From an uncultured Clostridia bacterium (GTDB taxonomy: Bacteria; Bacillota; Clostridia; Christensenellales; UBA1242): a DNA stretch of 64,000 nt. The notes beneath the pieces were generated by a model. That model was not told where the DNA came from, did not search any database, and saw only the letters and a program-made list of their open reading frames with translations. Below, piece by piece: positions 1,761 to 63,131 of this stretch; positions within the stretch are counted from its first letter, which is position 1; every line of letters begins with the position of its first letter. A program made the translations under genes and the position numbers. The stretch spans positions 361,397 to 425,396 of the forward strand of contig CAKVLR010000002.1 in the NCBI GenBank assembly GCA_934757855.1, given 5' to 3'.

Positions 1761-3633
1761 TGCTACTCCTATTTTTATATCTTTTTAGATAAATAGTCAA
1801 AATACTAATATCTGCTGGCGATACGCCACTGATTCTGCTTGCTTGTGCTAGATTTTGTGGTTGTACGCGCGCTAATTTCTGTTGCGCTTCAATTCGTAAG
1901 CCTTTCAGGGCGCTGTAATCTAAATCTTGCGGTATGAATATATTTTCGTTTTGTTCTTGGCTTTTGATTTGTTCTTGCTGAATATTGATATAACCCTCGT
2001 ATTTGGCTAAAATGTTTAATTGTTGCAATATTTCTTGTGAAAGGTCATCAAAAAAGTGAAATTTTGCGTTAAAATCGAAAATATCAATACTGTTTCGCTT
2101 TAAAAGTGAGCGAATGGTAATCCCACTTTTTATTGCTGGTTCGCCGTGCGATTTTAAATATTCTTGCAATTGTTGACTTGGCGATAAGACTTTGTTTAAT
2201 ATCTCCTCGCCTTTTTTAATGTCGCGTTCTTTCTTTAAAACTTTGAGATAATTTTTTCGTGTTACCAAACCAGCTTGGTATCCTAATTTGGATAATCGAA
2301 TATCGGCATTATCTTGCCTGAGTAGTAAGCGGTATTCTGCTCGTGAGGTCATCATTCTATATGGCTCGTTTGTGCCTTTTGTGACTAAATCATCGACCAA
2401 AACGCCTATATATGCATCATTTCGCTTTAAAATAAGTGGTTTTTTGCCTCTAACATACAAACTTGCATTTAAACCAGCCAAAATCCCTTGCGCTCCCGCC
2501 TCCTCGTAACCACTAGTGCCGTTTACTTGTCCAGCGAAAAATAATCCTGCAAGGCGCTTGTATTGTAGTGTAGCATCTAGGTCTGTTGAGTCAATGCAAT
2601 CGTATTCAATGGCATATGCATATCGCATTAAGTGCGCATTTTCTAAGCCTTTTATACTGTGAATAAAATCTAATTGCGAATGATACGGTAAACTGCTTGA
2701 AAGACCTTGTACATATATTTCATTGGTACTCATCGCCTCTGGTTCTAAGAAAAACTGGTGTCTATTTTTGTCTGCAAATCGTACAATTTTATCTTCGATT
2801 GAAGGACAATATCTTGGGCCTACCCCCTTAATTACTCCTTGATAGAGGGGGCTGTATTTTAGATTGGCGCGTATAATCTCGTGAGTGCGCTCGTTTGTGT
2901 AGCCCATATAGCAACTTGTTATGTTTTTTGGTAAGCGCCTAGTATTTTTGCTAAATGGCGGTAAATTCTCCTCGCCTTTTTGCTCCTCTAGCGCATCAAA
3001 ATTTATTGTGCGCCTATCCACTCTCATCGGCGTGCCTGTCTTAAAGCGTAAAATTTTTAAACCTAACCTTTGCAAACTCGCTGTAAGTTTGGTCGCGTTG
3101 GTAAATCCATTCGGTCCACTATTCCTTATATAATTGCCTGTAAGCGTACGGCTGTTTAAATAAACGCCAGTGCAAACCACTACCGCTTTTGCGTGGAACC
3201 TCTCACCCATTCCTGTTTCGATTCCCCAAAGTTTTCCTTGCTTGGTGATTATTTTGGTAACTTCACCCTGTAAAATCGTCAAATTTGGTTGATTTTCAAG
3301 AGTTGATTTCATAATCTCGTGATAACGAACTTTATCAACCTGAACGCGCAGTGAATGAACGGCTGGACCTTTTGAGCTATTTAACATTCGCTTATGCAAA
3401 GTCGCTTGGTCGGCTGTATGCCCCATTTCCCCGCCTAAGGCGTCAATTTCAAAAACCAAATGCCCTTTTGCTGTCCCGCCTATGCTTGGATTGCAAGGTA
3501 AAAAACCGATTCCATCTAGGTTGAGAGTTGTAATCAAAGTGTTTAGCCCCGTCCTAGCGCACGCCAAACTTGCCTCACAACCAGCGTGTCCCGCACCGAT
3601 GACTATCACATCATATTCTTTGTAATTTTTCAT
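1750..3633 (-). CDS. mnmG: tRNA uridine 5-carboxymethylaminomethyl modification enzyme MnmG (GidA)
   Basis: 627 aa; N-terminal FAD motif VIVIGAGHAGCEA; GidA-typical length and C-terminal domain. Confidence 0.97.
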   Translation of the reverse strand: MKNYKEYDVIVIGAGHAGCEASLACARTGLNTLITTLNLDGIGFLPCNPSIGGTAKGHLVFEIDALGGEMGHTADQATLHKRMLNSSKGPAVHSLRVQVDKVRYHEIMKSTLENQPNLTILQGEVTKIITKQGKLWGIETGMGERFHAKAVVVCTGVYLNSRTLTGNYIRNSGPNGFTNATKLTASLQRLGLKILRFKTGTPMRVDRRTINFDALEEQKGEENLPPFSKNTRRLPKNITSCYMGYTNERTHEIIRANLKYSPLYQGVIKGVGPRYCPSIEDKIVRFADKNRHQFFLEPEAMSTNEIYVQGLSSSLPYHSQLDFIHSIKGLENAHLMRYAYAIEYDCIDSTDLDATLQYKRLAGLFFAGQVNGTSGYEEAGAQGILAGLNASLYVRGKKPLILKRNDAYIGVLVDDLVTKGTNEPYRMMTSRAEYRLLLRQDNADIRLSKLGYQAGLVTRKNYLKVLKKERDIKKGEEILNKVLSPSQQLQEYLKSHGEPAIKSGITIRSLLKRNSIDIFDFNAKFHFFDDLSQEILQQLNILAKYEGYINIQQEQIKSQEQNENIFIPQDLDYSALKGLRIEAQQKLARVQPQNLAQASRISGVSPADISILTIYLKRYKNRSSNGK

Positions 3634-4665
3634 TTTATTTTCCTCGATAAATGTATATTATAATTATACCATATTTTGAATAAAATGTATAGATGTAAAA
3701 AGTATTTTTTGGTATCAAATTTAATTTTTAGATAGGTTCTATTTGTTTGCAAAAAGTATATTTATACATAAATAAAATTATTGATTATTAACTTGCAAAA
3801 AATGTGTTCAGAAAAAAATAGAGCAAAAGATTAAAATTTTTTACAAACATAAAAATTTTGAAAAAATATAAAAAAATATGAAAAAAATTAAAAAACTGAT
3901 ATATTAATTATTTTGTTGCGTTTTTTTAGTAAATATTATATAATTAAACGGTTTTTATGCGATTTGCTATTTAAAAGATTTTATAGTGAGATTTATTATA
4001 AATTGCAGACTTTTACGGTCTTTGTGATTGCATAAAAATAAATTAGTATTTATAAACATACATAGATGTAATGTTTTAATTTTTAATGTTTCTTTACGGC
4101 TGAAAATATTTTGCGGTTTGGATTTTTCTGTTGTTCGTTGCCACAGTTTTTTGAATATGGTATGTGTTTTATGGAATAAACTCTTAATAATGAAAGAGGG
4201 AATGTTAGTTATCTTATCAATCGATTACCGCAGTCGCTCTACGCACTCTTTCGTAATGCTTTGGAGTACCGCTAGGTACGGAAAGTCTGGCAGAAAAATA
4301 AGATTAATGGAATGACAAGTAATGCCAGCCAGTTGGAGCGTATTGGAGTCAGATATTCTAATTTAGAATAACAAATTTATGTTATAATAGAACGGTTAAG
4401 TAATAGCAAGTACGAAATTGTCATTGCGAGGGAGTGAAATGACCGCGGCAATCTAAAAAATAATAAGTAGATAAAAATTATATACCTCTTATCTTCGCAG
4501 GGCAGGTATTGTAATCTCTTCAAATTTTCATTTTTTCGTGCGGGAAATGTCTAAATTTGGCGAAAAGTAGTGAAAAATTGCAAATTTTTTCAAAAATTTT
4601 TAATTTGGTGCTTATTTTATTTGTGAAATTACACAAAATAAGATATAATTATAGTAAACATTTAG

Positions 4666-5985
4666 TTGATAGTTTTTAAAAATGGAGGAGTTTATGTACA
4701 AAAACAAAGAAGAAGCCCGCAGGGGGGGGGGCGCTTTAATAGCTCTAAAACAACTTGTATTTCAAGGAATAAAAAGGCATTTCTAATTGGGTTAATTTGT
4801 GCAAGTTTTGCCTTAATTTTAGGTGCAAGTTTACTTATTTTGAAGATTTTACCAAAGTTGAATGGGGTCGAAGAGCCTGGAAGGAGTTATACATTAACTA
4901 TTTCTCCTAGTGAAGGTGGTTATGCTATGTATATAAGAAACGGTGGTACTGCCTCAAAAGTAACCAGTAGTATTTATGCAAATGGTTGGGAAAATGAATC
5001 TACAACTTCTCTAACGGCGTATCCTAATTCTGGTTATCAATTTGTGAAGTGGGTATATAAGAACACAACATACACAACTGCATCTATCTATTATAATGGT
5101 GGCGGTATAAGTTTATATTTTGAAAAGACTGCTTTAATTGTGACAACTATTTCTAACGACTCCACGCAAGGCGGTGTTTCTGGAACGGGTGAGGTTACAA
5201 AAGGTCAATCTACCACAATCACTGCAACTCCAAATCGAGGGTATGCTTTTGATTGCTGGAAAAATAGTAACGGTGAGGTGATATCAACTAAGGCAAGTTA
5301 TACATTTACGCCGACTGAGGATATAACTTTAACGGCATATTTTAAGGTTGCGTATGTCACTATTCACAAAGGTGATGCTACCATTAGCGATTTTATTCAA
5401 GTTTATGATGATACAAATTTAACTCTAAAAATAGTAATTTCACCAAACGCAGGCGAGTATGTCAGTGAAATTTCTTTTGATAATTCGGTATTTTATGCGA
5501 TTGAAAGTTGGAAAGCCGAACTCTATGGCGCGTGTGCTGATGCTCTCAGTGTGACTTATTCGGTGACTAGTGGAACAAATAAATTTGGTATGTTTTTTGA
5601 TTATGTGTATGCAACGCCGAGTATAGATATTTATGTTCGTACGACAAATCAAGCCTATACCTCACTAAAAAAGCCAACTGCGGGTGGGGTGAGTAGCGTT
5701 GCGGTAACGGCTACATTAGGCGGAACGGTTACACTAGTGGGTGATGATTATGAAAGTTTAACTGAAAGCGATACAATCATTTGCTCGGCAACTCCTTGTA
5801 TGCAAGGCTACACATTTGCTGGGTGGTATTTGTCTGGTGATATGGCAAAACCTATCTCAACAAGCCTAAGTGTGCGCCTCGCAAAATCAACAATTTATGG
5901 GCAAGAATTAATCGCAAAATTTGAAAAAATCTCAACTTCAAACAACATAAATAGCGAAACCAACAACACAACTGATATACTATAA
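4666..5985 (+). CDS. membrane-anchored surface protein with Listeria-Bacteroides (Flg_new) repeats; likely phase-variable
   Basis: Repeat signatures GYQFVKW, GYAFDCW..TLTAYF and GYTFAGWY. TM helix LIGLICASFALILGASLLIL. The ORF-track TTG start (4666) has no SD. The SD GGAGG (4684-4688) plus ATG 4694 is out of frame with the gene body because of the G10 tract. Confidence 0.8.
   Translation: MIVFKNGGVYVQKQRRSPQGGGRFNSSKTTCISRNKKAFLIGLICASFALILGASLLILKILPKLNGVEEPGRSYTLTISPSEGGYAMYIRNGGTASKVTSSIYANGWENESTTSLTAYPNSGYQFVKWVYKNTTYTTASIYYNGGGISLYFEKTALIVTTISNDSTQGGVSGTGEVTKGQSTTITATPNRGYAFDCWKNSNGEVISTKASYTFTPTEDITLTAYFKVAYVTIHKGDATISDFIQVYDDTNLTLKIVISPNAGEYVSEISFDNSVFYAIESWKAELYGACADALSVTYSVTSGTNKFGMFFDYVYATPSIDIYVRTTNQAYTSLKKPTAGGVSSVAVTATLGGTVTLVGDDYESLTESDTIICSATPCMQGYTFAGWYLSGDMAKPISTSLSVRLAKSTIYGQELIAKFEKISTSNNINSETNNTTDIL
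4722..4731 (+). repeat. homopolymeric G10 tract between the SD/ATG and the gene body (slipped-strand switch candidate)
   Basis: 10 consecutive G counted directly, in an otherwise AT-rich genome. Confidence 0.9.
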
Positions 5986-6541: not shown

Positions 6542-9500
6542 ATGAACAAAAGTTTACAAATGGTAAGTTGGTTTACTGGGGTGATTTTGGGAATAGTTGT
6601 TTTGCTTTTTGGCGGATTAAATCTCACACAAAATCGCAAGGCAGTGCTAGGCTATCCGCAGTACACGACTTTTTGGCTCGATAGCGCGGTAAAATATATC
6701 GAGTCGGAGCAATCTGCTGGCACTAAACAATATCCATATTTAATCAACACACCTGAGCAGTTGGCGTACATTGCAAAGGCTGTGAACGGCGGTACGGTTG
6801 ATAATGATGGAAATGTGCAGTATCTTGATTTTAGCGGGGTATTTTTCCAACTCAACGCCGATATTGATTTGAGCGGGAGTAACTGGGTGCCTATTGGAAA
6901 CGAGGCGCACCCATTTAAAGGTGTATTTTATGGCAATGGTAAAAAAATCTCAAATATGGTGATTGACTCAACTATGATGAACGCGACCGCTGGCGGAGTT
7001 GTTGTGAATGATTTTAGACAAAGCCTAGGATTGTTTGGTTATGTTGGGTACAACGGGAGTGCTGGAGAAACTGCTTCCACAATCAATCAGTTGGTTATTG
7101 AAAATGCATACATAAACGCTTGCGAATACGCGCAATATGCGGGTACAGTTGCGGGGGTATTTGAGGGCGCAAGTTTAAATAATATCACTATCATTAGCCC
7201 TACGAGTGAAACTTCAAACGACACGACTAGCGCGGGCGCCGTGATTTATCACAATTTGACCGACGCAAGTGTAATGAGTGCGGACTTTATCGCGGGCGGT
7301 GTGGTAGGAAAGTTGGGTAACTCGACTAGCACAACCGTTGCAAACCTTAGCAATGCGAACCACGATAACGAAATTTTGACTTCTATAAAATCAACTATTT
7401 ACGACAACAACGGCTATTCAGTCGTTTTGGGTGGTTTAGTCGGTGAAAATAATGGTACTCTCAAAGAAAGTCGCCGTACTGGTGGCGAGATAAACGCGTT
7501 TATCGGTACAATCGGTGGTTTGGTCGGTGTAAATAGTGCTAGCGGGAAAATGCTAGACTGCTACAACTACGGAAACATTTTGATTGACCCACTTTTGCCA
7601 AACGGTGTGAGCGTAGATAGTGGCTTAAACAAGGCAGAAGAAACGGTCATCGGTGGTATGGCTGGTAAAAACTTTGGTAGCATTTCTATCGAGAATTTTA
7701 GTGCAATTTACGGTACTGTCGAAGGGCAAAATGTTGCGCAAGTATTCCAAACTTGCCGAGGACTAATCGGTGGTATCGCGGGAACAAGTAAAGGAACGAT
7801 TGAAAATATCACAAATTTTGCATTTGTAAAATGTACGGGCGACCAAGTGCAATATATGGGTGGTATTACCGCAATTAATGCGGGTACAATTCGTAAATGT
7901 GTAAATAAAGGCATCGTTGGTGCGGACGGAAATACTGAATTTTCAGCAAAGGCAGTCGGCGGTATCACTGGGCTAAATGATAGTGCATCAATAGGTGATG
8001 GCGCAGAGCAGTTGGGCGATGGTAAGATTTATGGTGTAGAAAACAAGGCTGACACTGGTATCAATATTAATGCGGAAAATGCGGGCGGTATCGCGGGTAT
8101 CAATGCAAGTACTGGAAATATTACCTCTTATGAGGCTGGCGTGGTGGCTGGTGTAGTGCGAAATTTAGGAAATGTGCAAGGCACATCTGCCGTTGGTGGT
8201 ATCGTTGGTAAAAATTACGGTACAGTGGAATATGTTTACAATACAACAAATATTAGTTGCGCAAGCAATGCGGACTCGGCTAGCGTGGGGGGCGTAGTTG
8301 GAATTATGAGCAAAGGCGCAATCAAAAATAGTTTCAATGTAGGACAAGTGCTTGATGGATATAATGTTGGTGGTTTTGTAGGCACAATGGAAAATAGAAC
8401 GGCAAGAATCGAAAATTGTATCAATTACGGAAGCGTAACAGGTAGCAGAGGATATGTTGGCGGTTTTGCTGGATATATCGAAGCGGGCGCGCTTAGCAAG
8501 GTAATCGCTATTTGTGATGTGACTGAAAACGGTGACTCGCCTTTGGGTATCGGTGGTGTAATCGGTGCGGTAAAATTAAGCAATGGTGCGCCTGATACAG
8601 GAGTTACGCTAGAAAACTATTTCTATTCGGAAAGCATTGCAAACTACGAAGAAGATGAATTTGGCGTAACTGATAACGGAATGATAGCAATCGGTAATAC
8701 TGACATCAACAAATGGGCAAAAATGGACAGTTACAAGATGACTTTGCCATATGTAGAAAGCAAAATGACTGGTAGTGACAGATACCGTAGCGGTTTGTAT
8801 AAGGCTGGTTCTACGGGTGCTGAAATTGAAAACACTGACTGGTACTTTAACACAGCAAATGAAACGGCAAATACATATTATTATCCTATTTTGCGTGCGT
8901 TTAGGGCTGGGGAAACAAATTCACTCAATGTCTATGGCGCAACGGCAGATGCGGTGAAACCTGAAAACGGACTCGAATACCCAAGCGAAACGATTTTTAG
9001 AGTAGAATTTAGAAACAATTATCCATACTGGAATGTAAACGCCAAAGATTACGAAGAACGCGTAATTTGTGAAGATAGATATGTAGTAAACGGACATTAT
9101 ACGGCTGAGCCAAACTCAGACCTTTACGATAAGCCAGCAGGCTTTTATATGCAATGGAAACAGACCGATATTGATATGACTACTGCTCCACAAAATTGGA
9201 GTTTTACAAATAAAGTTACTAGAAATATGCGCATATACATTGATTGGACCGAAAAAACTTATACAATTAAATATTACTTGCAACTAAATGGTGTAGGTGA
9301 ATTTGTAGAGATGACCGCGGAAGAAAGAGAGCAATTTGGACTGAGCGATTCTTCAACATATAGCCTTGACCCTAACGCAAAATCAAGTCTAAATGCGATT
9401 AATATACCTGAGCCAAAATTGTTTGGTTATTCTTTTGATGGCTGGTGGATAAGCAAGACCGCAAGCGGAATAGGTGCTACTCTTGATGAGACGGACAAAG

Positions 9501-11167
9501 TGACCGAATTTTCACGCAACGAAGTTTATGCAGAAGATATTATATATGTATATGGTAAAAAGACTGCTGAAACATACACTGTTTACCTTTACCCAGGCGT
9601 AAACAACTCAAATATTGCTATGAAATTTGTTGATGCACAAGAGGGTACGCCAAAAGTTGTGACCCTTACATATGGTGAGGCTTTTGATTTGAGCGACATT
9701 CAAGCGCAACTCGATTATGACCCAGCAGACATAACATTTAAAGGTTGGTTTAGTAACGAGGGGACGGGCGGTACACAATACACAAATACAAATTCAGTTA
9801 GTATTGGTGTGTTTAAACTAACTGGCACGGGCGCAATTCGTTGGTACGCGCAATGGACTGATTCAATGCAAAAAATCTTGTTTGTAAGTATTGATGAAAA
9901 CGGAACTGAGCAAAATTTAGGCTCAACTTCGGTGCCTTTTGGAAATATATTCACTTACGAACAATTTGTAAGCCAAAACCTCAAATATTATGTGATAGAT
10001 GAGCGCGGTGGTTATGAAATTGACAGGTGCTTTGCAGATGCAAGTTTGCTTACCTTGTTTGATTTTAATAATAACTCAATTACTGATAGAACGACAATTT
10101 ACATTACTTGGAAAAAGAAATTTTTTAGCCTTAGGCTTAACGCCGATGGTGGCGCGTTTAGTGATGATTCGACCGTTTATGTGATTAATAATATCGAATA
10201 CAAGAGTGACTTTTTGGGCGAAGTGCTAAACAATCTTGCCGATACGCAAATGCCAGCGCGCATAGGTTATAAGGTAAAGAGAGTGAATGATATTGCAATT
10301 TGGAACGAACAGCCAAACGGGCAAGGCGCGGTGATTTCTTACGCGAACAACAACTACATTATGCCTGCATATGACCTAAATATCTACATTTCTTGGGAAG
10401 TGGAAAAATACACTGTGCAGATTGTAGCAAATGGCGGTTTGTTTACGACCGAAAATGGCAGTACGCCTTCAATTAATATTGCGCTCGAATACAATACTTC
10501 ATTGAAACAAGCGCTTGACCGCTACTTTGTGGCTAATGCATTGCCTACAAACGAGGGGTACGGTTTTAGGTATTGGAGTTTGCAAAACGCAGGTATTGAT
10601 GACACGCCAGCACCAGCCTTGACCGATAGCGACAAAGTGCCATATCTTGGTACAACCGTTTATGCAACTTGGGGCAGACAATATATCGTTAAATTTAAAA
10701 AGATATTCTACGATGATGAAACATCTTGGCTAGAAATCAAAGTATTTGAAGGGGATTGTGTTAGCGAACCAGACACTTCTTCCACAGACTTTATGGTAGC
10801 GGGTATGGACTTTGTAGAATGGAAACAATATATGGGTACAATCACAAATGAAAATGGCGAAAAAGAACAAGTTTATCAAGCATATGATTGGCTCGAGCCT
10901 GTCACTAGCGACTTAATTTTAGTAGGTACTTGGACACCAAACGGTGGCAAAACGGACCCTATCGACACAAGCAATATCTTGATTATCGCAATTTCAATAA
11001 TCGCTGGTATTGTGGTGATTATGTTTGTGGTTATTTTGGCGCGTAGCCGTAAAAAAGGACTAGAAGTTTCGAATAAACGCCTACAAACCAAAAATAGCAA
11101 GGAAAAATTAGAAAAAATACGCGAAATTGAAAAACGCCGTAAAAATGACAACCCATTCGATTTCTAA
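6542..11167 (+). CDS. giant surface protein (1541 aa): N-terminal signal anchor, GLUG-type glycine-rich beta-helix repeats, Listeria-Bacteroides repeats, C-terminal TM plus basic tail
   Basis: Repeated GG(I/L/V)(A/V)G..N motifs. Later GYSFDGWW, FKGWFS and GYGFRYWS repeats. C-terminus IIAISIIAGIVVIMFVVILARSRKK. No LPXTG motif. Confidence 0.85.
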   Translation: MNKSLQMVSWFTGVILGIVVLLFGGLNLTQNRKAVLGYPQYTTFWLDSAVKYIESEQSAGTKQYPYLINTPEQLAYIAKAVNGGTVDNDGNVQYLDFSGVFFQLNADIDLSGSNWVPIGNEAHPFKGVFYGNGKKISNMVIDSTMMNATAGGVVVNDFRQSLGLFGYVGYNGSAGETASTINQLVIENAYINACEYAQYAGTVAGVFEGASLNNITIISPTSETSNDTTSAGAVIYHNLTDASVMSADFIAGGVVGKLGNSTSTTVANLSNANHDNEILTSIKSTIYDNNGYSVVLGGLVGENNGTLKESRRTGGEINAFIGTIGGLVGVNSASGKMLDCYNYGNILIDPLLPNGVSVDSGLNKAEETVIGGMAGKNFGSISIENFSAIYGTVEGQNVAQVFQTCRGLIGGIAGTSKGTIENITNFAFVKCTGDQVQYMGGITAINAGTIRKCVNKGIVGADGNTEFSAKAVGGITGLNDSASIGDGAEQLGDGKIYGVENKADTGININAENAGGIAGINASTGNITSYEAGVVAGVVRNLGNVQGTSAVGGIVGKNYGTVEYVYNTTNISCASNADSASVGGVVGIMSKGAIKNSFNVGQVLDGYNVGGFVGTMENRTARIENCINYGSVTGSRGYVGGFAGYIEAGALSKVIAICDVTENGDSPLGIGGVIGAVKLSNGAPDTGVTLENYFYSESIANYEEDEFGVTDNGMIAIGNTDINKWAKMDSYKMTLPYVESKMTGSDRYRSGLYKAGSTGAEIENTDWYFNTANETANTYYYPILRAFRAGETNSLNVYGATADAVKPENGLEYPSETIFRVEFRNNYPYWNVNAKDYEERVICEDRYVVNGHYTAEPNSDLYDKPAGFYMQWKQTDIDMTTAPQNWSFTNKVTRNMRIYIDWTEKTYTIKYYLQLNGVGEFVEMTAEEREQFGLSDSSTYSLDPNAKSSLNAINIPEPKLFGYSFDGWWISKTASGIGATLDETDKVTEFSRNEVYAEDIIYVYGKKTAETYTVYLYPGVNNSNIAMKFVDAQEGTPKVVTLTYGEAFDLSDIQAQLDYDPADITFKGWFSNEGTGGTQYTNTNSVSIGVFKLTGTGAIRWYAQWTDSMQKILFVSIDENGTEQNLGSTSVPFGNIFTYEQFVSQNLKYYVIDERGGYEIDRCFADASLLTLFDFNNNSITDRTTIYITWKKKFFSLRLNADGGAFSDDSTVYVINNIEYKSDFLGEVLNNLADTQMPARIGYKVKRVNDIAIWNEQPNGQGAVISYANNNYIMPAYDLNIYISWEVEKYTVQIVANGGLFTTENGSTPSINIALEYNTSLKQALDRYFVANALPTNEGYGFRYWSLQNAGIDDTPAPALTDSDKVPYLGTTVYATWGRQYIVKFKKIFYDDETSWLEIKVFEGDCVSEPDTSSTDFMVAGMDFVEWKQYMGTITNENGEKEQVYQAYDWLEPVTSDLILVGTWTPNGGKTDPIDTSNILIIAISIIAGIVVIMFVVILARSRKKGLEVSNKRLQTKNSKEKLEKIREIEKRRKNDNPFDF

Positions 11168-37654: not shown

Positions 37655-39310
37655 CTATAAAATATTTGTACCGCCGTTGTCCGTTGTGTCGTTTATGTTT
37701 GCGTTAGTTATCGGCTCAAAAGTCGCCGTAATTATCGCATTTTTGATGAGGTTAAACGGAATATTTACACTAAGTTTGTTGTACGCGGAAAGGTCCGCAC
37801 CATTGCTTGCAGTCCAGCCAGTAAAATTATAGCCCGTGAATGGTACAGCGCTTAGATGAATAGTGCTTGTGTTATCATCATAGCCAATCACACGCGCCTC
37901 ACCACCACTGCTAGCCGAGATTGCCACGCCCTCAATTTTAGACCCATAACTAGGCGTTTTTAGCGTTTGTTTGGTGTTGGTTAGGTTTACAGTTATATTT
38001 GTAGTTCCATAAAGATACTCAAAACTCATCGACACGACATTTGTTTCTTCTTTTGCATAGTAGGTAATTCGGTTTGCGTTGCCCGCGCCATACAGCACAC
38101 CCTCATAATATTCGGTAGGGTAGGTCGTGTTGCCAACCGTGATGCTGTTTACATACATTCCGCTACTAGGGGTAAGGACTAAGTAATCAGTATCGCCTAT
38201 TTTTTCGTTTGAGTAAGTACCTTCACCTCCACTAAACGCGACTGTAATGGTAGGTAAGGCTTTGAAATATGCAACAAGTGTACTATCTTGTGTAATAGTA
38301 AATGAAAGAGGGTTCGCTGTTTTGCGTTCGTTGTTTAATAACCAATAATCAAAGGTATAGTTGCTTTCTGGCACCGCTTGCGCCTTTACGGTGCTATTTT
38401 TGGCATATTCAGTGGTTGTGTCTACAATTGCACCCCCACCAGTAGGTGATACACTGGTAGATAAAGTATAACCAGTAAATGTCCAATTAGCCATAGCAGT
38501 TATATCACTAGTCCAAAGCCATAAAGTTGATGAGGTTATTCGTGTACTATTTATATACCAACCATTAAAAATGTATAATTCTCTTTGTGCAGTTGGTAAA
38601 GAGGAAGATATTGTTTGATTGTATGTAACATTAATAGTATTACTGGCTCCAGTACCACCATTAAAATCAAATGATAAGCGGTAAGTTTTTGCAGTCACAC
38701 CTGAACTAATAGATAGTTTTAATACGCCTACATAAAAGTAAGTATAGATTGATGCAAACGTTTTTTTACTAAGAAGGGCGCATGAAAAACCTGAGTTTGA
38801 ACTAGTAAAGTTATTTCCCGAGCAAGTATAAGAAACTGTGGTGTAATTCGATGAGTCACTACTGTTTACATTAGCAAGTGCATTAGATAGAGCTGTTGAT
38901 TCATCGCTTGTGGTTACTTGTCCTAAGTTTCCACTTTTTGTGCCCCAAGCAAATTTTGCACTAAATGAAGTAGGGGACCAAGTGCAACCTTTTGGTGTTA
39001 AACTAAATGCTCCAGTCCATTGATAGAAGTAATAATAATTGTCCGTGCTAGATGTTGTTCCTTGCTGTTTTGTTGTAATACCTGTAATATTACAACTATC
39101 CACATAGATTCCATCATCTACATAAATATATATTTTACCATATCCAGTTTTGCTATCCTTAGTTACTGTTGTTCTCGAAGAACTAAAACTGCTCTCACTT
39201 GCCAGTGCGGGAGGAGTTTTTGGAGTTATGAGAACACATACTAGCGCTACGACACCAGCCACCAAAATTGATACAAAAATGGCTGAAATTTTGTAAATTT
39301 TTGCGTTCAT
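37655..39310 (-). CDS. membrane-anchored surface protein with Listeria-Bacteroides repeats (paralog of 4666-5985)
   Basis: N-terminal anchor ISAIFVSILVAGVVALV. Repeats FNGWYI, YTFDYWL and YNFTGW. The C-terminal tail ..TFEPITNANINDTTDNGGTNIL parallels ..KFEKISTSNNINSETNNTTDIL. Confidence 0.8.
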   Translation of the reverse strand: MNAKIYKISAIFVSILVAGVVALVCVLITPKTPPALASESSFSSSRTTVTKDSKTGYGKIYIYVDDGIYVDSCNITGITTKQQGTTSSTDNYYYFYQWTGAFSLTPKGCTWSPTSFSAKFAWGTKSGNLGQVTTSDESTALSNALANVNSSDSSNYTTVSYTCSGNNFTSSNSGFSCALLSKKTFASIYTYFYVGVLKLSISSGVTAKTYRLSFDFNGGTGASNTINVTYNQTISSSLPTAQRELYIFNGWYINSTRITSSTLWLWTSDITAMANWTFTGYTLSTSVSPTGGGAIVDTTTEYAKNSTVKAQAVPESNYTFDYWLLNNERKTANPLSFTITQDSTLVAYFKALPTITVAFSGGEGTYSNEKIGDTDYLVLTPSSGMYVNSITVGNTTYPTEYYEGVLYGAGNANRITYYAKEETNVVSMSFEYLYGTTNITVNLTNTKQTLKTPSYGSKIEGVAISASSGGEARVIGYDDNTSTIHLSAVPFTGYNFTGWTASNGADLSAYNKLSVNIPFNLIKNAIITATFEPITNANINDTTDNGGTNIL

Positions 39311-50784: not shown

Positions 50785-50970
50785 CGATATTGACCTAGCG
50801 GTCAATGATATTACTCACTATCGTTCGTAGTGATATTATTTACTAGCGTAAATAATGATATGATATTTGCCTTCACTGCAAACAAAGTTTGCAATATCAC
50901 TCGCTAAGCGAATATCATTGCGGAGCAATATCACTCACGCAGTGAATATCACTGAGCCGTAGGCTCAATT
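50785..50970. repeat. array of eight different short hairpins separated by GATAT (x5), then ATATC (x4), linker words
   Basis: GATAT at 50786, 50807, 50832, 50857 and 50862. ATATC at 50894, 50912, 50928 and 50946. Hairpins at 50791-50804, 50815-50833, 50838-50853, 50877-50893, 50901-50911, 50917-50929, 50931-50945 and 50953-50967. Confidence 0.8.
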
Positions 50971-50974
50971 TCAT

Positions 50975-51019
50975 TGTAAACAAAAGGAAAAGCCTCATAG
51001 GCTTTCCTTTTTTGTTTAC
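50975..51019. terminator. long hairpin with flanking A/T tracts (bidirectional terminator type)
   Basis: GTAAACAAAAGGAAAAGCC-TCAT-AGGCTTTCCTTTTTTGTTTAC. Confidence 0.7.
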
Positions 51020-57491: not shown

Positions 57492-60400
57492 ATGGCAAAA
57501 GAAAAAGAGAAATTAAAGCATACTAATTATAGCATTGGACTGGATATTGGTACAAATTCAGTTGGTTGGGCTGTTGTAGATGAAAATATGAATTTGGTTA
57601 AGCGTTGTAAAAAGCACTTATGGGGTAGTCGCTTGTTTGATGAGCGCGAAACAGCAAAAAATAGGCGTATATTTCGTACTACGCGCAGAAGGTTATTGCG
57701 TAGGCGTATTCGTATCGCAATACTAAATAAATTGCTACAAGATTTTGTTGGCGACCAAAACTTTTTTGTTAGAATGGAAGAAAGTTTTTTGCAGAAAAAC
57801 GACCGCACTTTGCAAAATAAATACACACTTTTTGATGAAGAAAGTTCTTGCGACATAAAATCAAGTGATGGCAAAATTTTATATACCATAACAAAAGATG
57901 ATGATTTTTATAAATTATTTCCTACAATTTATCACTTGCGCAAAAGCATTATTGAGCATCAAGATTGGATATTTGCTCCAAAACTGGTTTATTTAGCGAT
58001 TCACCATATCTTAAAGAGTCGTGGTAACTTTATCAATGAAAGTTTGGACTCAAAAAATAGCGATGATAAAAATACCGATGAGGACCAAGAACAAGAGATA
58101 GATATAAATAAATTATTTGTTAAAATTTTGCAAGATGCTTGTGATATATATGATGTGGAATTAGAAAATATTGATGAATTTAGCGAATATAAATGGATTA
58201 GAAATCTAAGTGCACAATCGCAGGTATTTTTTGAAGTTTTGCAAAATAATGATTTAAGCAAAGAAGCAAAAATTGCGCAAATAAAACAAAAATTTAATTG
58301 TGGAAAAGATGATACAGAAATTGAATCGCTCCTAAAATTGTTACTTGGCGATTTGGCGGATATCAACAAGATATTTAAGAGTGATACCAAAGAGAAATTT
58401 AAAGTGAAATTTTCAGAGGACAATATTGATGAAAAAATATTAGCAAGTGGTGAATATTCACAATTTTTAGAAAATGCTAAAAACTTGTATTCCTTGGTAG
58501 AGTATCAGCGAATTATGCAAGGCAAAAATTATCTTTCTGATGTAATGATAGAGCGATACAATCGTTACAAACAACAATTAAAAGACTTAAAAACTGTATT
58601 TTTAGCGATTTATCCAAAACAAAATGGCAAAATGCACCCAGAATATCGCAAGTTTTTCCGTGATTTAAAAACTGTTGATGGTTATGCTTGATATACATAT
58701 TCCGTTAATTCTTGTGATGAGAAAAAATTTAAAAGTACTATTATAGGGGCAATAAAAAATAATGAGCAAAAAATAATTAGTGCGGGCATTTGTGCGGAAG
58801 ACAACCAAAGTATTGCGGAAAAAGCGAAAAAAATCTTAATTTGTCTTGGAGAGTATTCGGCAAAAGATGGAAAAGAACAACTTTATGTTGGTATAGACTT
58901 TACAGACAAAGATTTTAGGACAGAGAGTGATAGGCAAAAGCAACAAGAGTTAGGCTTTTTACAGCGCCCTCGCGTGGCTGGTAATGGTATTTTCCCAAAA
59001 CAAGCACACCAAAAAGAATTAGATATAATTCTTAAAAATCAATCAGTATATTGGGGCAATTTTTTAAACAAAAAAACTGATTTCTCAAACAACACAATTC
59101 AAGAAGATATCAAAAAATTATTCAATTTTAAAATTGACTACTATGTTGGACCATTGGGTATCAGCAAAAATGGAACAAACAATTTTGGCTGGGTGGTACG
59201 CAAAGAAGGTTTTAGTGAAATAACTCCTTTTAATTATTACGATGCTGTTGATTTTGAGAAAACTCGTAAAAATTTTATTGAGAGAATGTCTGGCAACTGC
59301 TCATATATTTTGAATAAAAAAGCGTTACCTAAAAACTCAATGTATTACTGCTATTTTAATGTACTAAATGAATTATGCAATATTAGTATTTTGATAAAAG
59401 ACAAATTAATGAAATTGCACGAGATTTCACTAAATGGAAAAAATTGCTTTGATATTATTATTGATAAATTGCTCGAGAAAAATACCTTTAAACAAAAAGA
59501 TTTATTGCATATGCTGACAGAAGAATATGATGATGTGTCTATAAGAGGTTTTTCAAATGGCGAAAAGTTAAATTCTAATTTAAAATCAATTCGCGATATG
59601 GCTAGAATATTTGAGGATAGAAAATTAAATCATTGTGAAATTATGGAATTTCTAGGCAGTGAAAAAGCAAGTATGTATGAAGATGTAATTCGTGATGTTA
59701 CTATTTTCGGCGAAAGCAAAAAAGCACTAAAAGAATCTTTGAGTAAATATCATTTGAAGGAAGATGAAAAAGAGAGAGAGAAACAAATAAACGCCATTTG
59801 TGAGTTAAATTATTCTGGTTGGGGTAATTTGAGCAAAAAATTAATTTTTGGCATTGAATCTGAGAGTAGCGGGAACAAAATTCTAAAATTAATGGAAAGC
59901 GAACATAGAAACTTTATGTCTATTTATATGGACAAGCGATACGGCTTTGATGAGCAAGTAAAAAAACTAAACGAAGTAGATAAACCTAATGTCCTTGAGC
60001 AAATTAACTCGCTTGTTTGCTCTCCTAGCGTAAAAAGAGGGGTTAACCAAGCGTATAAAATTGTGGAGGAACTAGTACAAGTTATGGGACACGCTCCGCA
60101 AAATGTATTTTTAGAGTTCGCGCGTGGTGGAGATTCTAAGAAAAAAGGTAGTGTTATTCCAAACAGACAAAAACAAATTGACAAAAAATATAAAGATGCA
60201 AAAGCATTAAAAGATGGCTTATATGAAAAATATATAAATGCTGACGGTAAATTAAATGAAAATATAAGCCTTTTATCACAAAACGATAAAGAAAATGATA
60301 AATTAAAGAATAAATTTGATAATGAAAAAGTAGTACTATATTTCTTGCAAATGGGTAGATGTATGTACAGTAATGAGATATTAGACTTAAATCATATTAG

Positions 60401-62255
60401 CGAATATGAAGTGGACCACATCGTGCCTCAGTCGATTATAGATGATAATAGTTTTGATAATAAAGTTTTGGTTAAGGTGAAAAGAAATCAACAAAAATCC
60501 AATGGAATTTTAGAGATAAAAGACTCAGAAGTAACGAAATTATGGAAAGAGTTGCGTAAAATGGGGTTGTTGACAGTTGAAAAATATGATAGATTGCTCA
60601 AATTGCAGAATGGCACTCTGCTTGATAATACTGCTGGTTTTGTTGCTAGACAATTAGTGGAAACTAGGCAAATTATAAAAAATACCGCAGAAATTTTAAA
60701 AGACTACTTCAAAGAATATAATGCTAAATCTGCTCAAATTAATGCAGAAAATCAAGCATTTGAAACTTCGGTTTATCCTGTAAAGGCTGAGATGAATAGT
60801 ATTTTTAGACAAAAATTTGGTTATCCAAAGGGCGAAGGTGGCAGGGCTATCAATGACTTTCACCACGCAAAAGATGCCTATATCACAACGGTTATGGGGA
60901 CTTATATGCTAAATCATTGGCATTTAGATGACCCTAAAATGTGGTTTGTAGCAAGGAGTAAAAAGAATGAAGATGACCCTAAATTTGAATGTTCATTTTA
61001 TCAAAACTATATCGAAGATATAAAAGCGGAACAAGACACGCTAAACCCGCAAAATACAAATAAAAGCGGTGTGATTGTTGGTTCGATGAAGAAATATCAA
61101 GACAAAAATTGGTGTGGTAGCAAATGCGAAACTCATACAAACATTACTATTAAAGATGTGCTTAATAATTTTGACCGTAACTACTACTCCGCAGATTGTT
61201 ATTATTCAAGAAAAATTGATTCAAAACCAACAGGTGCTTTTTACGACCAAACCATTTACAAAAGCGACAAGAATAAAGAAAAGTTTGGGAAAACGCGCAA
61301 TCATGAGGGTATTGCGAGTATTTCTTTGGGAAAAATCAAAAAACCAATTATGCCATATGGTGAGAAGGTAGTGCAAAAAATCAATAGAATAGACTTAGAT
61401 GTGAGTAAATATGGTGGCTATTCTTCAACTAAATATGCATATTTTATGCTAATTGAGTACAAAGATGAAAAGGGTAAAGTAATTCAGGAAATAATTGGTT
61501 GTCCATACTACATATTAAAACAATCATCGAATGATATTGAATTAGTGAATAACATAAAAAATAATTTAATAATAAAAAACCAACAAGAATATACTAATTT
61601 TAAAATTTTAAATAAACGATTACCTAAAAAAAGTGTTTTGCAAACTAATTTGTATTCAAAAGTTTCGTTAGATCGGTCTGAACAATTCAAGATTATAAAT
61701 CGCTTCAGTATCCCACGAAATAATAAAGAATTATATCATTTTATTTATTTAATTTTTAAGTATACTAAGAGCAAAGATGAATATGAGGGTAATAGAAAGA
61801 TTACAATAAATTATATTGATTATAATGCATGGCTAAAAGAAAAACAGTATCCGTTAGGTGTGAATATAGATTTAGAGAATTATATAAATGAGAATTTTGC
61901 TAATTTTTATAAGATTTTTCTTGAATATGTTAAGTCAAAACATAGACATAAGACTTCTATAATTAATATTGAAAAAGCATATGCTAAGATTTGTAATGAA
62001 ACTGATTTAGATGCGATATATCACGATACCAATACAAAAACCATACTTGAAAAGAAATTATTATTTATTGTAGGGTTATTAAATATTTCAAAGGGAGAGG
62101 CAGATTTTACATTGTTTGATTTAGCAAAAAATTGTGGACTTATTAGGATTACACAGGAAGTGGACTGGTATAACACTTACATTATTCACAATTCCATAAC
62201 TGGTATTTATTGCACAAAAGAAAAAATAATAAAAAATACACAAGAAAATAGGTAA
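57492..62255 (+). CDS. cas9: Cas9 (type II-A), 1587-codon frame interrupted by one in-frame TGA at 58689-58691 (possible pseudogene or read-through)
   Basis: RuvC-I YSIGLDIGTNSVGWAVV; Arg-rich bridge helix RRIFRTTRRRLLRRRIRI; RuvC-II VFLEFARG; HNH YEVDHIVPQS..N; RuvC-III NDFHHAKDAY. ORF-track pieces 57492-58691 and 58974-62255 are in the same frame, and 58692-58973 is open. Confidence 0.93.
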
Positions 62256-62258
62256 AAT

Positions 62259-63131
62259 ATGAGTTTTAGGACTGTTTTAATTACTCAAAAATCAAAGTTA
62301 TCATACAAAGATAACTTTTTGGTTATTCAAGGTAAAACAACAAATATGGTGCATTTAAGCGAAATTCATACTATTATTGTTGAATCTACAATGGTGCAAA
62401 TATCGGCATATCTTTTAGCTCAATTATCTGCAAACAAAATCAAATTGATTGTTTGCGATGAACGCCACAACCCTACAGCAGAAATGGTACCATATTATGC
62501 AAATTACAATACATCAAAAAGATTTTTAAATCAGGTCAAATGGAATGAGGAAAGTAAAAAAGCCCTTTGGACAAAAATAGTATCAAATAAAATACTAAAT
62601 CAGGCAAGAATTTTAAAAAATTTTGGAATAGAAAGACACAAAATGTTGCTAGGATATTTGAGTGAGGTAGAATTAAACGATGAAACAAATAGAGAGGGAC
62701 ATTCTGCAAAAGTCTATTTTAATAGTTTGTTTGGTATGGATTTTTCGCGGGACAAGGTTTGTGATATAAATATGGCATTAGATTACGGATATACTATTAT
62801 TTTATCTGCGTTTAATCGTACTATATCTAGTTTGGGTTATGCAAACCAATTAGGAATTAAACATAAAAATGAGTACAATTTCTTTAACCTAGGTTGCGAC
62901 CTTATGGAGCCGTTTCGAGTGGTTATAGATGAATTTGTGTATGAAAATCGTGAGCGAATGTTTGATTCTTCATACAAACAAGATTTGGTGCAGTTGTTAA
63001 ATAAGAATATTAATTATTGTGGCAAAAATATGATTTTAACCAATGCAATAAATATATTTGTGCTAAACGCGTTGCGCGCAATTGATGAAAATAGAATAGC
63101 GGAGTATGAAGCATATGAGTACGGAGTATAG
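62259..63131 (+). CDS. cas1: Cas1 (type II)
   Basis: Strong similarity by eye to S. pyogenes Cas1: SKLSYK.N.L, NREGHSAKVYFNSLFG.DFSRD, LDYGYT, EPFR. Confidence 0.95.
   Translation: MSFRTVLITQKSKLSYKDNFLVIQGKTTNMVHLSEIHTIIVESTMVQISAYLLAQLSANKIKLIVCDERHNPTAEMVPYYANYNTSKRFLNQVKWNEESKKALWTKIVSNKILNQARILKNFGIERHKMLLGYLSEVELNDETNREGHSAKVYFNSLFGMDFSRDKVCDINMALDYGYTIILSAFNRTISSLGYANQLGIKHKNEYNFFNLGCDLMEPFRVVIDEFVYENRERMFDSSYKQDLVQLLNKNINYCGKNMILTNAINIFVLNALRAIDENRIAEYEAYEYGV

Follow-up and report, generated by a model that had tools for sequence, protein, structure and literature searches.

Anatomy of the G-tract gene

The 64,000-nt stretch of DNA analyzed here (64 kb, 35% GC; hereafter the window, along the whole of which positions are counted) belongs to an uncultured member of the gut Clostridia. 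It carries a gene for a predicted membrane-anchored InlB-B-repeat protein with a run of exactly ten G residues (G10; 4722–4731, + strand) at its 5′ end, and this homopolymer, proposed to act as a slipped-strand switch, is the subject of the present analysis. The body of the gene is an open reading frame (ORF) of 439 aa (4666–5985, +; stop codon 5983–5985), which at G10 is in frame only with a TTG at 4666–4668 (+). This TTG, the sole start-type codon available to the body frame and the one picked by gene callers in all assemblies, lies only ~10 nt downstream of where transcription is inferred to begin and has no purine-rich Shine-Dalgarno (SD) sequence within the 20 nt upstream. The first methionine in the body frame is residue 88, located C-terminally to the membrane helix (residues 38–62 by hydropathy; 4777–4851, +).

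The SD sequence of the locus, GGAGG at 4684–4688 (+), precedes by 5 nt an ATG at 4694–4696, which is in another frame than the body; a second ATG at 4682 shares the frame of ATG 4694 and has no SD of its own. Translation from ATG 4694 through the tract ends after 30 codons at TAA 4784–4786, whereby the short ORF at 4694–4786 (+) encodes the peptide MYKNKEEARRGGGALIALKQLVFQGIKRHF, the putative OFF-state product of the locus as sequenced. When the tract was varied in silico from G8 to G14, the SD-served ATG joined the body only at G8, G11 and G14, giving products of 429–431 aa; a single added G thus fuses ATG 4694 to a 430-aa protein, and the 418 codons 3′ of the tract are fully open. The SD and its ATG lie downstream of a promoter-like sequence TTGTGA-17 nt-TATAAT (4621–4649, +) that matches 10 of the 12 consensus positions. 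An earlier note on this DNA, made from the letters and a list of ORFs, had already described the pairing of GGAGG with an out-of-frame ATG, the stop at 4784–4786, the fusion at 8, 11 or 14 G, the TTG without SD, the next methionine behind the helix and a fused product with a basic N-terminal tail and a signal anchor. The coordinates, frames, translations and tract-length simulation all agreed with it.

The body frame 3′ of the tract (4732–5985, +) encodes a basic segment, the membrane helix, a variable part of the ectodomain (about 4760–5115, +) and a conserved C-terminal part (5116–5985, +), the last two being delimited by blastn against paralogs. The conserved part harbors InlB-B-repeat domains: both Flg_new_2 (PF18998; 3.8e-24, 84.9 bits against a cut-off of 23.6) and Flg_new (PF09479; 1.9e-11, 44.4 bits against a cut-off of 27) exceeded their Pfam gathering scores, which places the product among the InlB B-repeat (Flg_new_2/Flg_new) proteins. 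At G11, the predicted product would consist of a 30-residue basic tail with nine K/R, one hydrophobic helix of 19–25 residues and an ectodomain of ~380 residues. Neither an LPXTG motif nor a lipobox is present in the product (C-terminus ...ETNNTTDIL), and a sequence search of the PDB gave no match. The gene adjoins mnmG-rsmG-parAB-yidC-rnpA in the vicinity of dnaA and is followed on its 3′ side by a gene for a 1541-aa GLUG/Flg_new protein; no sortase was found among the gene's neighbors (mnmG and the 1541-aa protein). From the sequence, we infer a surface-type product exposed on the cell.

The conserved 5′ cassette and its copies

Paralogs were found by homology search with the repaired protein, and the DNA of their loci was then compared. 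The search yielded a narrow family, the members of which share a 5′ cassette of ~225 nt (4534–4758, + in the window) containing the promoter and leader, the SD with its ATG, the G tract and the codons immediately past it. Its elements keep a fixed order, namely promoter, leader, SD-ATG, a spacer of 28 or 29 nt, the pure G tract and CGCTTaAATAGC. The SD is kept in all copies as GGAGG or AGGAG, and the −10 region (ACAAAATAAGrTATAAT) is common to all of them and to the tract-less relatives described below. By blastn, the cassette of the window is 80–83% identical to those of contigs L003, L005, L006, L007 and L040, and the following ~350 nt are not alignable. Past the cassette comes the variable region (about 4760–5115), followed by the conserved 3′ part (5116–5985).

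The cassette is common to at least four paralogous genes of the lineage and to an unrelated gene. Locus 1 is that of the window (G10). Locus 2 (L003, G10) is situated on the same contig ~14 kb away, beside dnaA; locus 3 (L006, G11) comes from the same sample, and locus 4 (L005, G12) from a near-clonal strain in another sample. G10 is also the length at locus 1 of a lineage with 91% identity (L007) and in a cassette that, on a 1.2-kb metagenome contig (L040), is linked to an unrelated small membrane protein. Tract lengths thus differ only between paralogs (10, 10, 11 and 12) and between L006 (G11) and the very similar cassette of L040 (G10). In L007, the cassette of the locus-1 gene is standard and its G10 is in phase, but the frame is broken by an extra T (T5 vs. 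T4; about 2995–3005) in the part coding for the helix; this T is either a real second lesion or an error of low-coverage assembly (coverage 11).

Beyond these copies, a pattern scan of JGI metagenomes (CCCGCA-G7+...AATAGC) gave 35 matches, L040 being the only cassette, and the cassette promoter was not found in a scan of viral contigs. A profile search over 1.84 billion representatives returned mostly giant multi-repeat proteins, the family being limited to the clusters of P0001, P0006 and P0007. A protein-guided scan of GTDB gave, among the matches listed, only distant InlB-repeat proteins with at most 34% identity, and a search with the joined N-terminal peptides (66 aa) yielded no candidate.

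A small palindromic element, TTGCGAGGGAGTGAAATGACCGCGGCAATCT, is single-copy in the window (4424–4454) and is also present at about 2690 and 7041–7117 in L003, at 2800–2850 in L006 and at about 300–400 in L040; several cassettes have it just 5′ of them. Two copies in L040 lie within the reading frame 3′ of the G tract and are translated through.

A homopolymer of this kind is out of proportion to its genomic background. The G10 tract is the only G/C run of at least 7 in the window, in which 0.0025 G runs of at least 10 would be expected, so that the earlier note was right to call it conspicuous in an AT-rich genome. Since GGG is the rarest glycine codon here (12.5%), the coding of Gly-Gly-Gly does not explain the run. 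The earlier note had also suggested looking for further G/C tracts of at least 8 at surface-protein genes; over the ~90 kb of sequence scanned from this genome and its near-clonal relative, every such run proved to be a cassette tract. Over six distinct cassette copies, all 10 tract columns are invariant as against 59% of the flanking columns (P ~0.005). Three marks of a contingency locus are found together: a homopolymer of ~8 or more units, its location between the functional start and the body, where a change by one unit shifts the frame, and its retention beyond coding need with conservation among homologous loci.

The distant relatives P0005/P0006 (L073–L077) possess a homologous promoter (...gcacaaaataagttataat), followed by an ordinary leader of ~130 nt with its own SD. 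The signal peptide they encode is of the classical type (MAKTKSIVLSVATMICIIVASVACVLAFSG), and G/C runs of at least 6 are absent from the whole of their loci. The tract is thus dispensable for the protein and represents a lineage-specific add-on to an older gene family. Being such an addition, the SD/ATG/G-tract module fits a regulatory device, not a structural Gly-Gly-Gly. The P0006 loci (L073–L077) adjoin spoVG and another large Flg_new protein.

Within the narrow family, P0002 (L007) is a mosaic of a locus-2-type N-terminal half and a locus-1-type C-terminal half, and P0064, encoded at locus 2 in another sample, carries a locus-1 C-terminal patch (PCIQGY...SGDMAKP) in comparison with P0003 and P0001. 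The two mosaics indicate gene conversion between family members. A surface-type product combined with mosaic recombination between paralogs is typical of variable surface antigens.

Two starts in the paralogs and one in the window copy

Five of the six cassettes (L003, L005, L006, L007 and L040) contain two SD-ATG pairs in different frames 5′ of the tract, of which pair A has the form AAGGAG-N8-ATG and pair B the form GGAGG-N5-ATGTAC. In such dual-start cassettes, a tract of n residues gives a B-started protein when n = 1 mod 3 and an A-started protein when n = 2 mod 3, and leaves at most an SD-less ATG in frame when n = 0 mod 3. Because SD and ATG are paired in two frames, two of the three tract lengths are ON. 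In all four intact paralog copies, the body does share its frame with an ATG served by an SD, that of pair B at G10 in L003 and L040, and that of pair A at G11 in L006 and at G12 (+CC) in L005.

The window copy departs from this layout in two respects. Its ATG-to-tract spacer is 28 nt as opposed to 29 nt in all five other cassettes, and it has no pair A, the upstream starts being limited to the frame-B ATGs (4682 and 4694) and the SD-less TTG. Start codons in two frames, as in licA, are consequently a property of the five dual-start cassettes but not of the window copy. It is the shorter spacer and the loss of the second pair that place the window's G10 out of frame, the same G10 being in frame in a paralog. 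The claim of the earlier note that the gene appears to be OFF at G10 is borne out insofar as the ATG frame stops at TAA 4784, and G11 would restore the frame. Given the shorter spacer and the lost start, a contraction from G11 to G10 is not the sole possible history of the locus.

The site of the missing pair A is occupied by sequence resembling the leader of the divergently transcribed mnmG. Together with the mnmG promoter, it forms a 36-nt inverted repeat with 30 of 36 positions matching, one arm lying in the mnmG promoter/leader (3648–3683) and the other in the cassette promoter/leader (4629–4664). None of 200 dinucleotide shuffles reached 30 matches, the highest value being 27. The repeat is confined to the window locus and its lineage (24/36 in L007, none in the paralogs), and its sequence looks like the trace of a past recombination between the two divergent promoters.

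Proposed mode of action

The G10 tract is probably a poly-G slipped-strand contingency switch at the 5′ end of a gene for a membrane-anchored InlB-B-repeat protein. This interpretation draws on what was directly observed, namely the anatomy of the locus, the frame logic, the conservation and purity of the tract, its differing lengths among paralogs and its absence from distant members of the family; that the tract changes in length at a useful frequency and that TTG 4666 is unused, we infer. According to this scheme, transcription would start from the cassette promoter (TTGTGA-17-TATAAT), and ribosomes would load at GGAGG 4684 and initiate at ATG 4694. They would enter the G tract 28 nt further on and, at G10, continue in the wrong frame to the stop at TAA 4784, so that no anchored protein would be made (OFF). 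If one G were gained or two were lost during replication, the outcome would be the 430-aa fusion protein, MYKNKEEARRGGGRFNSS...(membrane helix)...(ectodomain), and the gene would be ON. In the paralog cassettes, the second SD/ATG pair in the other frame would make two of three lengths ON and provide alternative cytoplasmic tails. The window copy, having lost this pair, would act as a simple one-in-three switch.

More tentatively, a portable 5′ switch cassette consisting of the promoter, two SD/ATG pairs and G10–12 may serve the whole surface-protein gene family, onto which it would have been grafted, the more distant members having ordinary leaders. Each gene would then have three states: tail A, tail B and off.

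Tract length at single loci and alternative explanations

Several observations weigh against the slipped-strand switch. Tract lengths at the same locus were compared in consensus sequences of 2–4 assemblies per locus, the lengths being read from identical protein N-termini, and a difference was found at none of the four loci. Locus 1 had G10 in three assemblies (the window, an NCBI metagenome-assembled genome (MAG) with the identical protein P0062, and L004), locus 2 had G10 in four (P0003, P0063, P0064 and P0065), locus 3 had G11 on three contigs and locus 4 had G12 in two assemblies. If lengths were randomized among the three phases, two-sample agreement at four loci would have P ~0.01, which points either to slow switching or to selection of the states. 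Moreover, the window copy has also lost SD_A/ATG_A and has a 1-nt deletion between ATG and tract, lesions which would look the same in an early pseudogene.

The weight of the locus-1 comparison depends on the relatedness of its sources. An identical G10 sequence is present in ENA contig L001, apparently the window's own contig, and in L004 from a second sample, and L004 differs from the window by one mismatch in 7320 nt. Since this main comparison is near-clonal, it has low power, and the shared tract length carries little weight. Look-ups with the neighboring proteins of locus 1 retrieved only the same contig, the near-clone and Logan contigs ending at 4290 and 5931. Overall, the constancy of length within each locus lowers our confidence in switching that would be both of high frequency and unselected. 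In the comparison between strains and bins suggested in the earlier note, lengths thus differed among the paralogs (10, 10, 11 and 12) and not at any one locus. Its phase-variation reading is partly borne out, with comparative support from the same pure tract in every paralog and in L040 and from the absence of the tract in more distant relatives.

The Logan assembly of run ERR7738273 (contigs L002 and L072) ends at window positions 4290 and 5931, in sequence shared with paralogs. Because it breaks on both sides of the gene, the gene is missing from that assembly. The accessions of the samples were not found in the literature searched.

The alternative that survives best, although we consider it unlikely, is that the window copy is a recently inactivated gene (a young pseudogene), broken by the 1-nt deletion and the loss of the second start and without any meaningful switching rate. 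The spacer of 28 nt where five other cassettes have 29, the replacement of SD_A/ATG_A by mnmG-leader-like sequence and the identical out-of-frame state in all three locus-1 assemblies are in line with it, as is the disruption of the locus-1 gene in the 91%-identical L007 by the extra T in the helix-coding run. The 418 open codons past the tract argue against decay in a 35% GC genome, and the shared state of assemblies that are near-clonal weighs little. Furthermore, a +1 change of the tract can compensate any upstream frameshift, and for this reason a pseudogene and an OFF phase are inseparable by sequence.

It is rather improbable that the gene is expressed at G10 as it stands, either by initiation at TTG 4666, by ribosomes slipping −1 within the G run, or by RNA polymerase slipping to yield G11 transcripts. 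A product initiated at the TTG, the start chosen by the gene callers, would be 439 aa long and would share its basic tail and helix with the fused form, and a run of G codons lets tRNA-Gly re-pair after a −1 slip. The TTG itself, however, has no SD and would have almost no leader, and stable RNA structure is absent 3′ of the tract (z = −0.14). The paralogs, moreover, are in frame without slippage at different tract lengths, so that a conserved programmed frameshift is not a property of the family. Conserved programmed frameshifting was rejected on these grounds, as the paralogs need no shift and no downstream structure was found; the same findings set the gene apart from genes with programmed transcriptional slippage. 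An Rfam scan of 4250–4850 gave no match.

A miscounted homopolymer, with a true tract of G11 and an intact gene, is very unlikely. All sources are short-read metagenome assemblies, and both Illumina sequencing and the annotation of databases are known to have difficulty with G tracts (PMC9187656). Nevertheless, different assemblers arrived at G10 in at least two samples (a MEGAHIT k141 contig, the scaffolded SAMEA4765514 assembly and the NCBI MAG), and these assemblies do distinguish G11 and G12 at the loci of the paralogs.

Finally, control of the gene by inversion of a 945-bp segment bounded by the 36-nt inverted repeat is extremely improbable: the match between the arms does exceed that of every shuffle, but the repeat is restricted to the window locus and lineage, the orientation is identical in both samples, no recombinase gene was found nearby, and both arms are centered on palindromic −10 boxes of divergent promoters, so that inversion would swap like for like. 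An invertible promoter (inverton) was accordingly rejected, the repeat being locus-specific, in a single orientation and with no recombinase nearby. Recoding of TGA as a factor in this gene was also rejected, the relevant stop being TAA.

Comparison with known phase-variable systems

The contingency loci of Campylobacter jejuni, Neisseria and Helicobacter are described as having a run of 8–13 G in the 5′ coding region, where a one-base change shifts the frame (PMC6321876, PMC11868660). The window gene and its paralogs resemble them in the 5′ coding G run, the presence of multiple loci per genome and the surface-related products, and differ in the host, which is an uncultured spore-forming gut clostridium instead of a Gram-negative pathogen. 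Here, moreover, the paralogs share a duplicated cassette of promoter, leader and start to which the tract belongs, and length variation at a single locus, as compared in 2–4 consensus assemblies per locus, was not observed.

The closest ecological parallel is found in the sortase-dependent pilins of bifidobacteria. In Bifidobacterium breve, a G10–12 tract that separates the secretion-signal part of pilin genes from the body has been demonstrated to act as a switch by replication slippage; the annotation of the reference genome shows two separate ORFs (OFF), and in vivo the ON variants become enriched (PMC9187656). Both cases concern a Gram-positive gut commensal and a surface protein with a G10–12 tract. 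In comparison with the pilins, to whose system it does not belong, the present locus has no sortase, LPXTG motif or pilus operon, encodes an InlB-B-repeat protein, has the tract before and not after the hydrophobic signal/anchor, and belongs to a cassette type with two start codons.

The dual-start arrangement has its precedent in licA (lic1) of Haemophilus influenzae, in which initiation codons are present in two of the three frames 5′ of the repeat (PMC2212159). As in the paralog cassettes, full-length protein is made in two of the three phases, its N-terminus differing between them, and the third phase is OFF. The repeat of licA, however, is the tetranucleotide CAAT and its product a cytoplasmic kinase, as opposed to a G homopolymer and a surface protein here, and the window copy has no second start. 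The opa genes of Neisseria, with CTCTT repeats in the region coding for the signal peptide, form a multigene adhesin family whose members recombine with each other. They are similar to the present family in that every copy in a multigene surface family carries a frame-shifting repeat of its own, placed between start codon and mature protein, with independent ON/OFF states and mosaic recombination between copies. They are dissimilar in their pentanucleotide repeat, outer-membrane beta-barrel products and Gram-negative host.

To our knowledge, only DNA-inversion switches have so far been described in the bacterial group concerned. The mechanism itself is already known, and what is new here is the host group, the uncultured spore-forming gut Clostridia, and the portable cassette. 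If the interpretation is true, the family would constitute a combinatorial surface "phasome" driven by simple sequence repeats in a spore-forming gut Clostridia lineage, and a cassette-borne poly-G switch on a recombining surface family would extend the phenomenon to an uncultured clostridial gut commensal. A recent review asks whether the pathogen-heavy record of multi-locus repeat-driven phase variation results from database bias (PMC11868660). With four loci at hand, ON and OFF states would be readable directly from metagenomic reads across hosts. In practical terms, gene callers annotate the gene from a start that appears spurious, and assemblies break around it.

Organism and other features of the window

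The organism is a spore former from gut metagenomes. The first attribute follows from the presence of yqfD in the window and of spo0A and spoVA adjoining a paralog, which also led to the rejection of a mollicute origin; the second is indicated by a Gut-1 RNA (RF01706, 54.7 bits) at 50907–50976 (−), situated between tRNA genes. Two further InlB-B-repeat/GLUG surface proteins are encoded in the window, one of 551 aa (37655–39310, −) and the aforementioned one of 1541 aa (6542–11167, +); the starts of the two genes are ordinary, and a G/C tract is absent from either.

A cas9 gene at 57492–62255 (+), followed by cas1 (62259–63131), forms one continuous frame of ~1590 codons with a single in-frame TGA at 58689–58691. 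The N-terminal part (399 aa) begins with ...YSIGLDIGTNSVGWAVV (RuvC-I), and the C-terminal part comprises the Cas9_REC, HNH, RuvC and PI domains. TGA is rare as a stop codon in the window (2 of the 32 ORFs of at least 200 aa), and the one within cas9 could reflect a nonsense pseudogene, an error or read-through.

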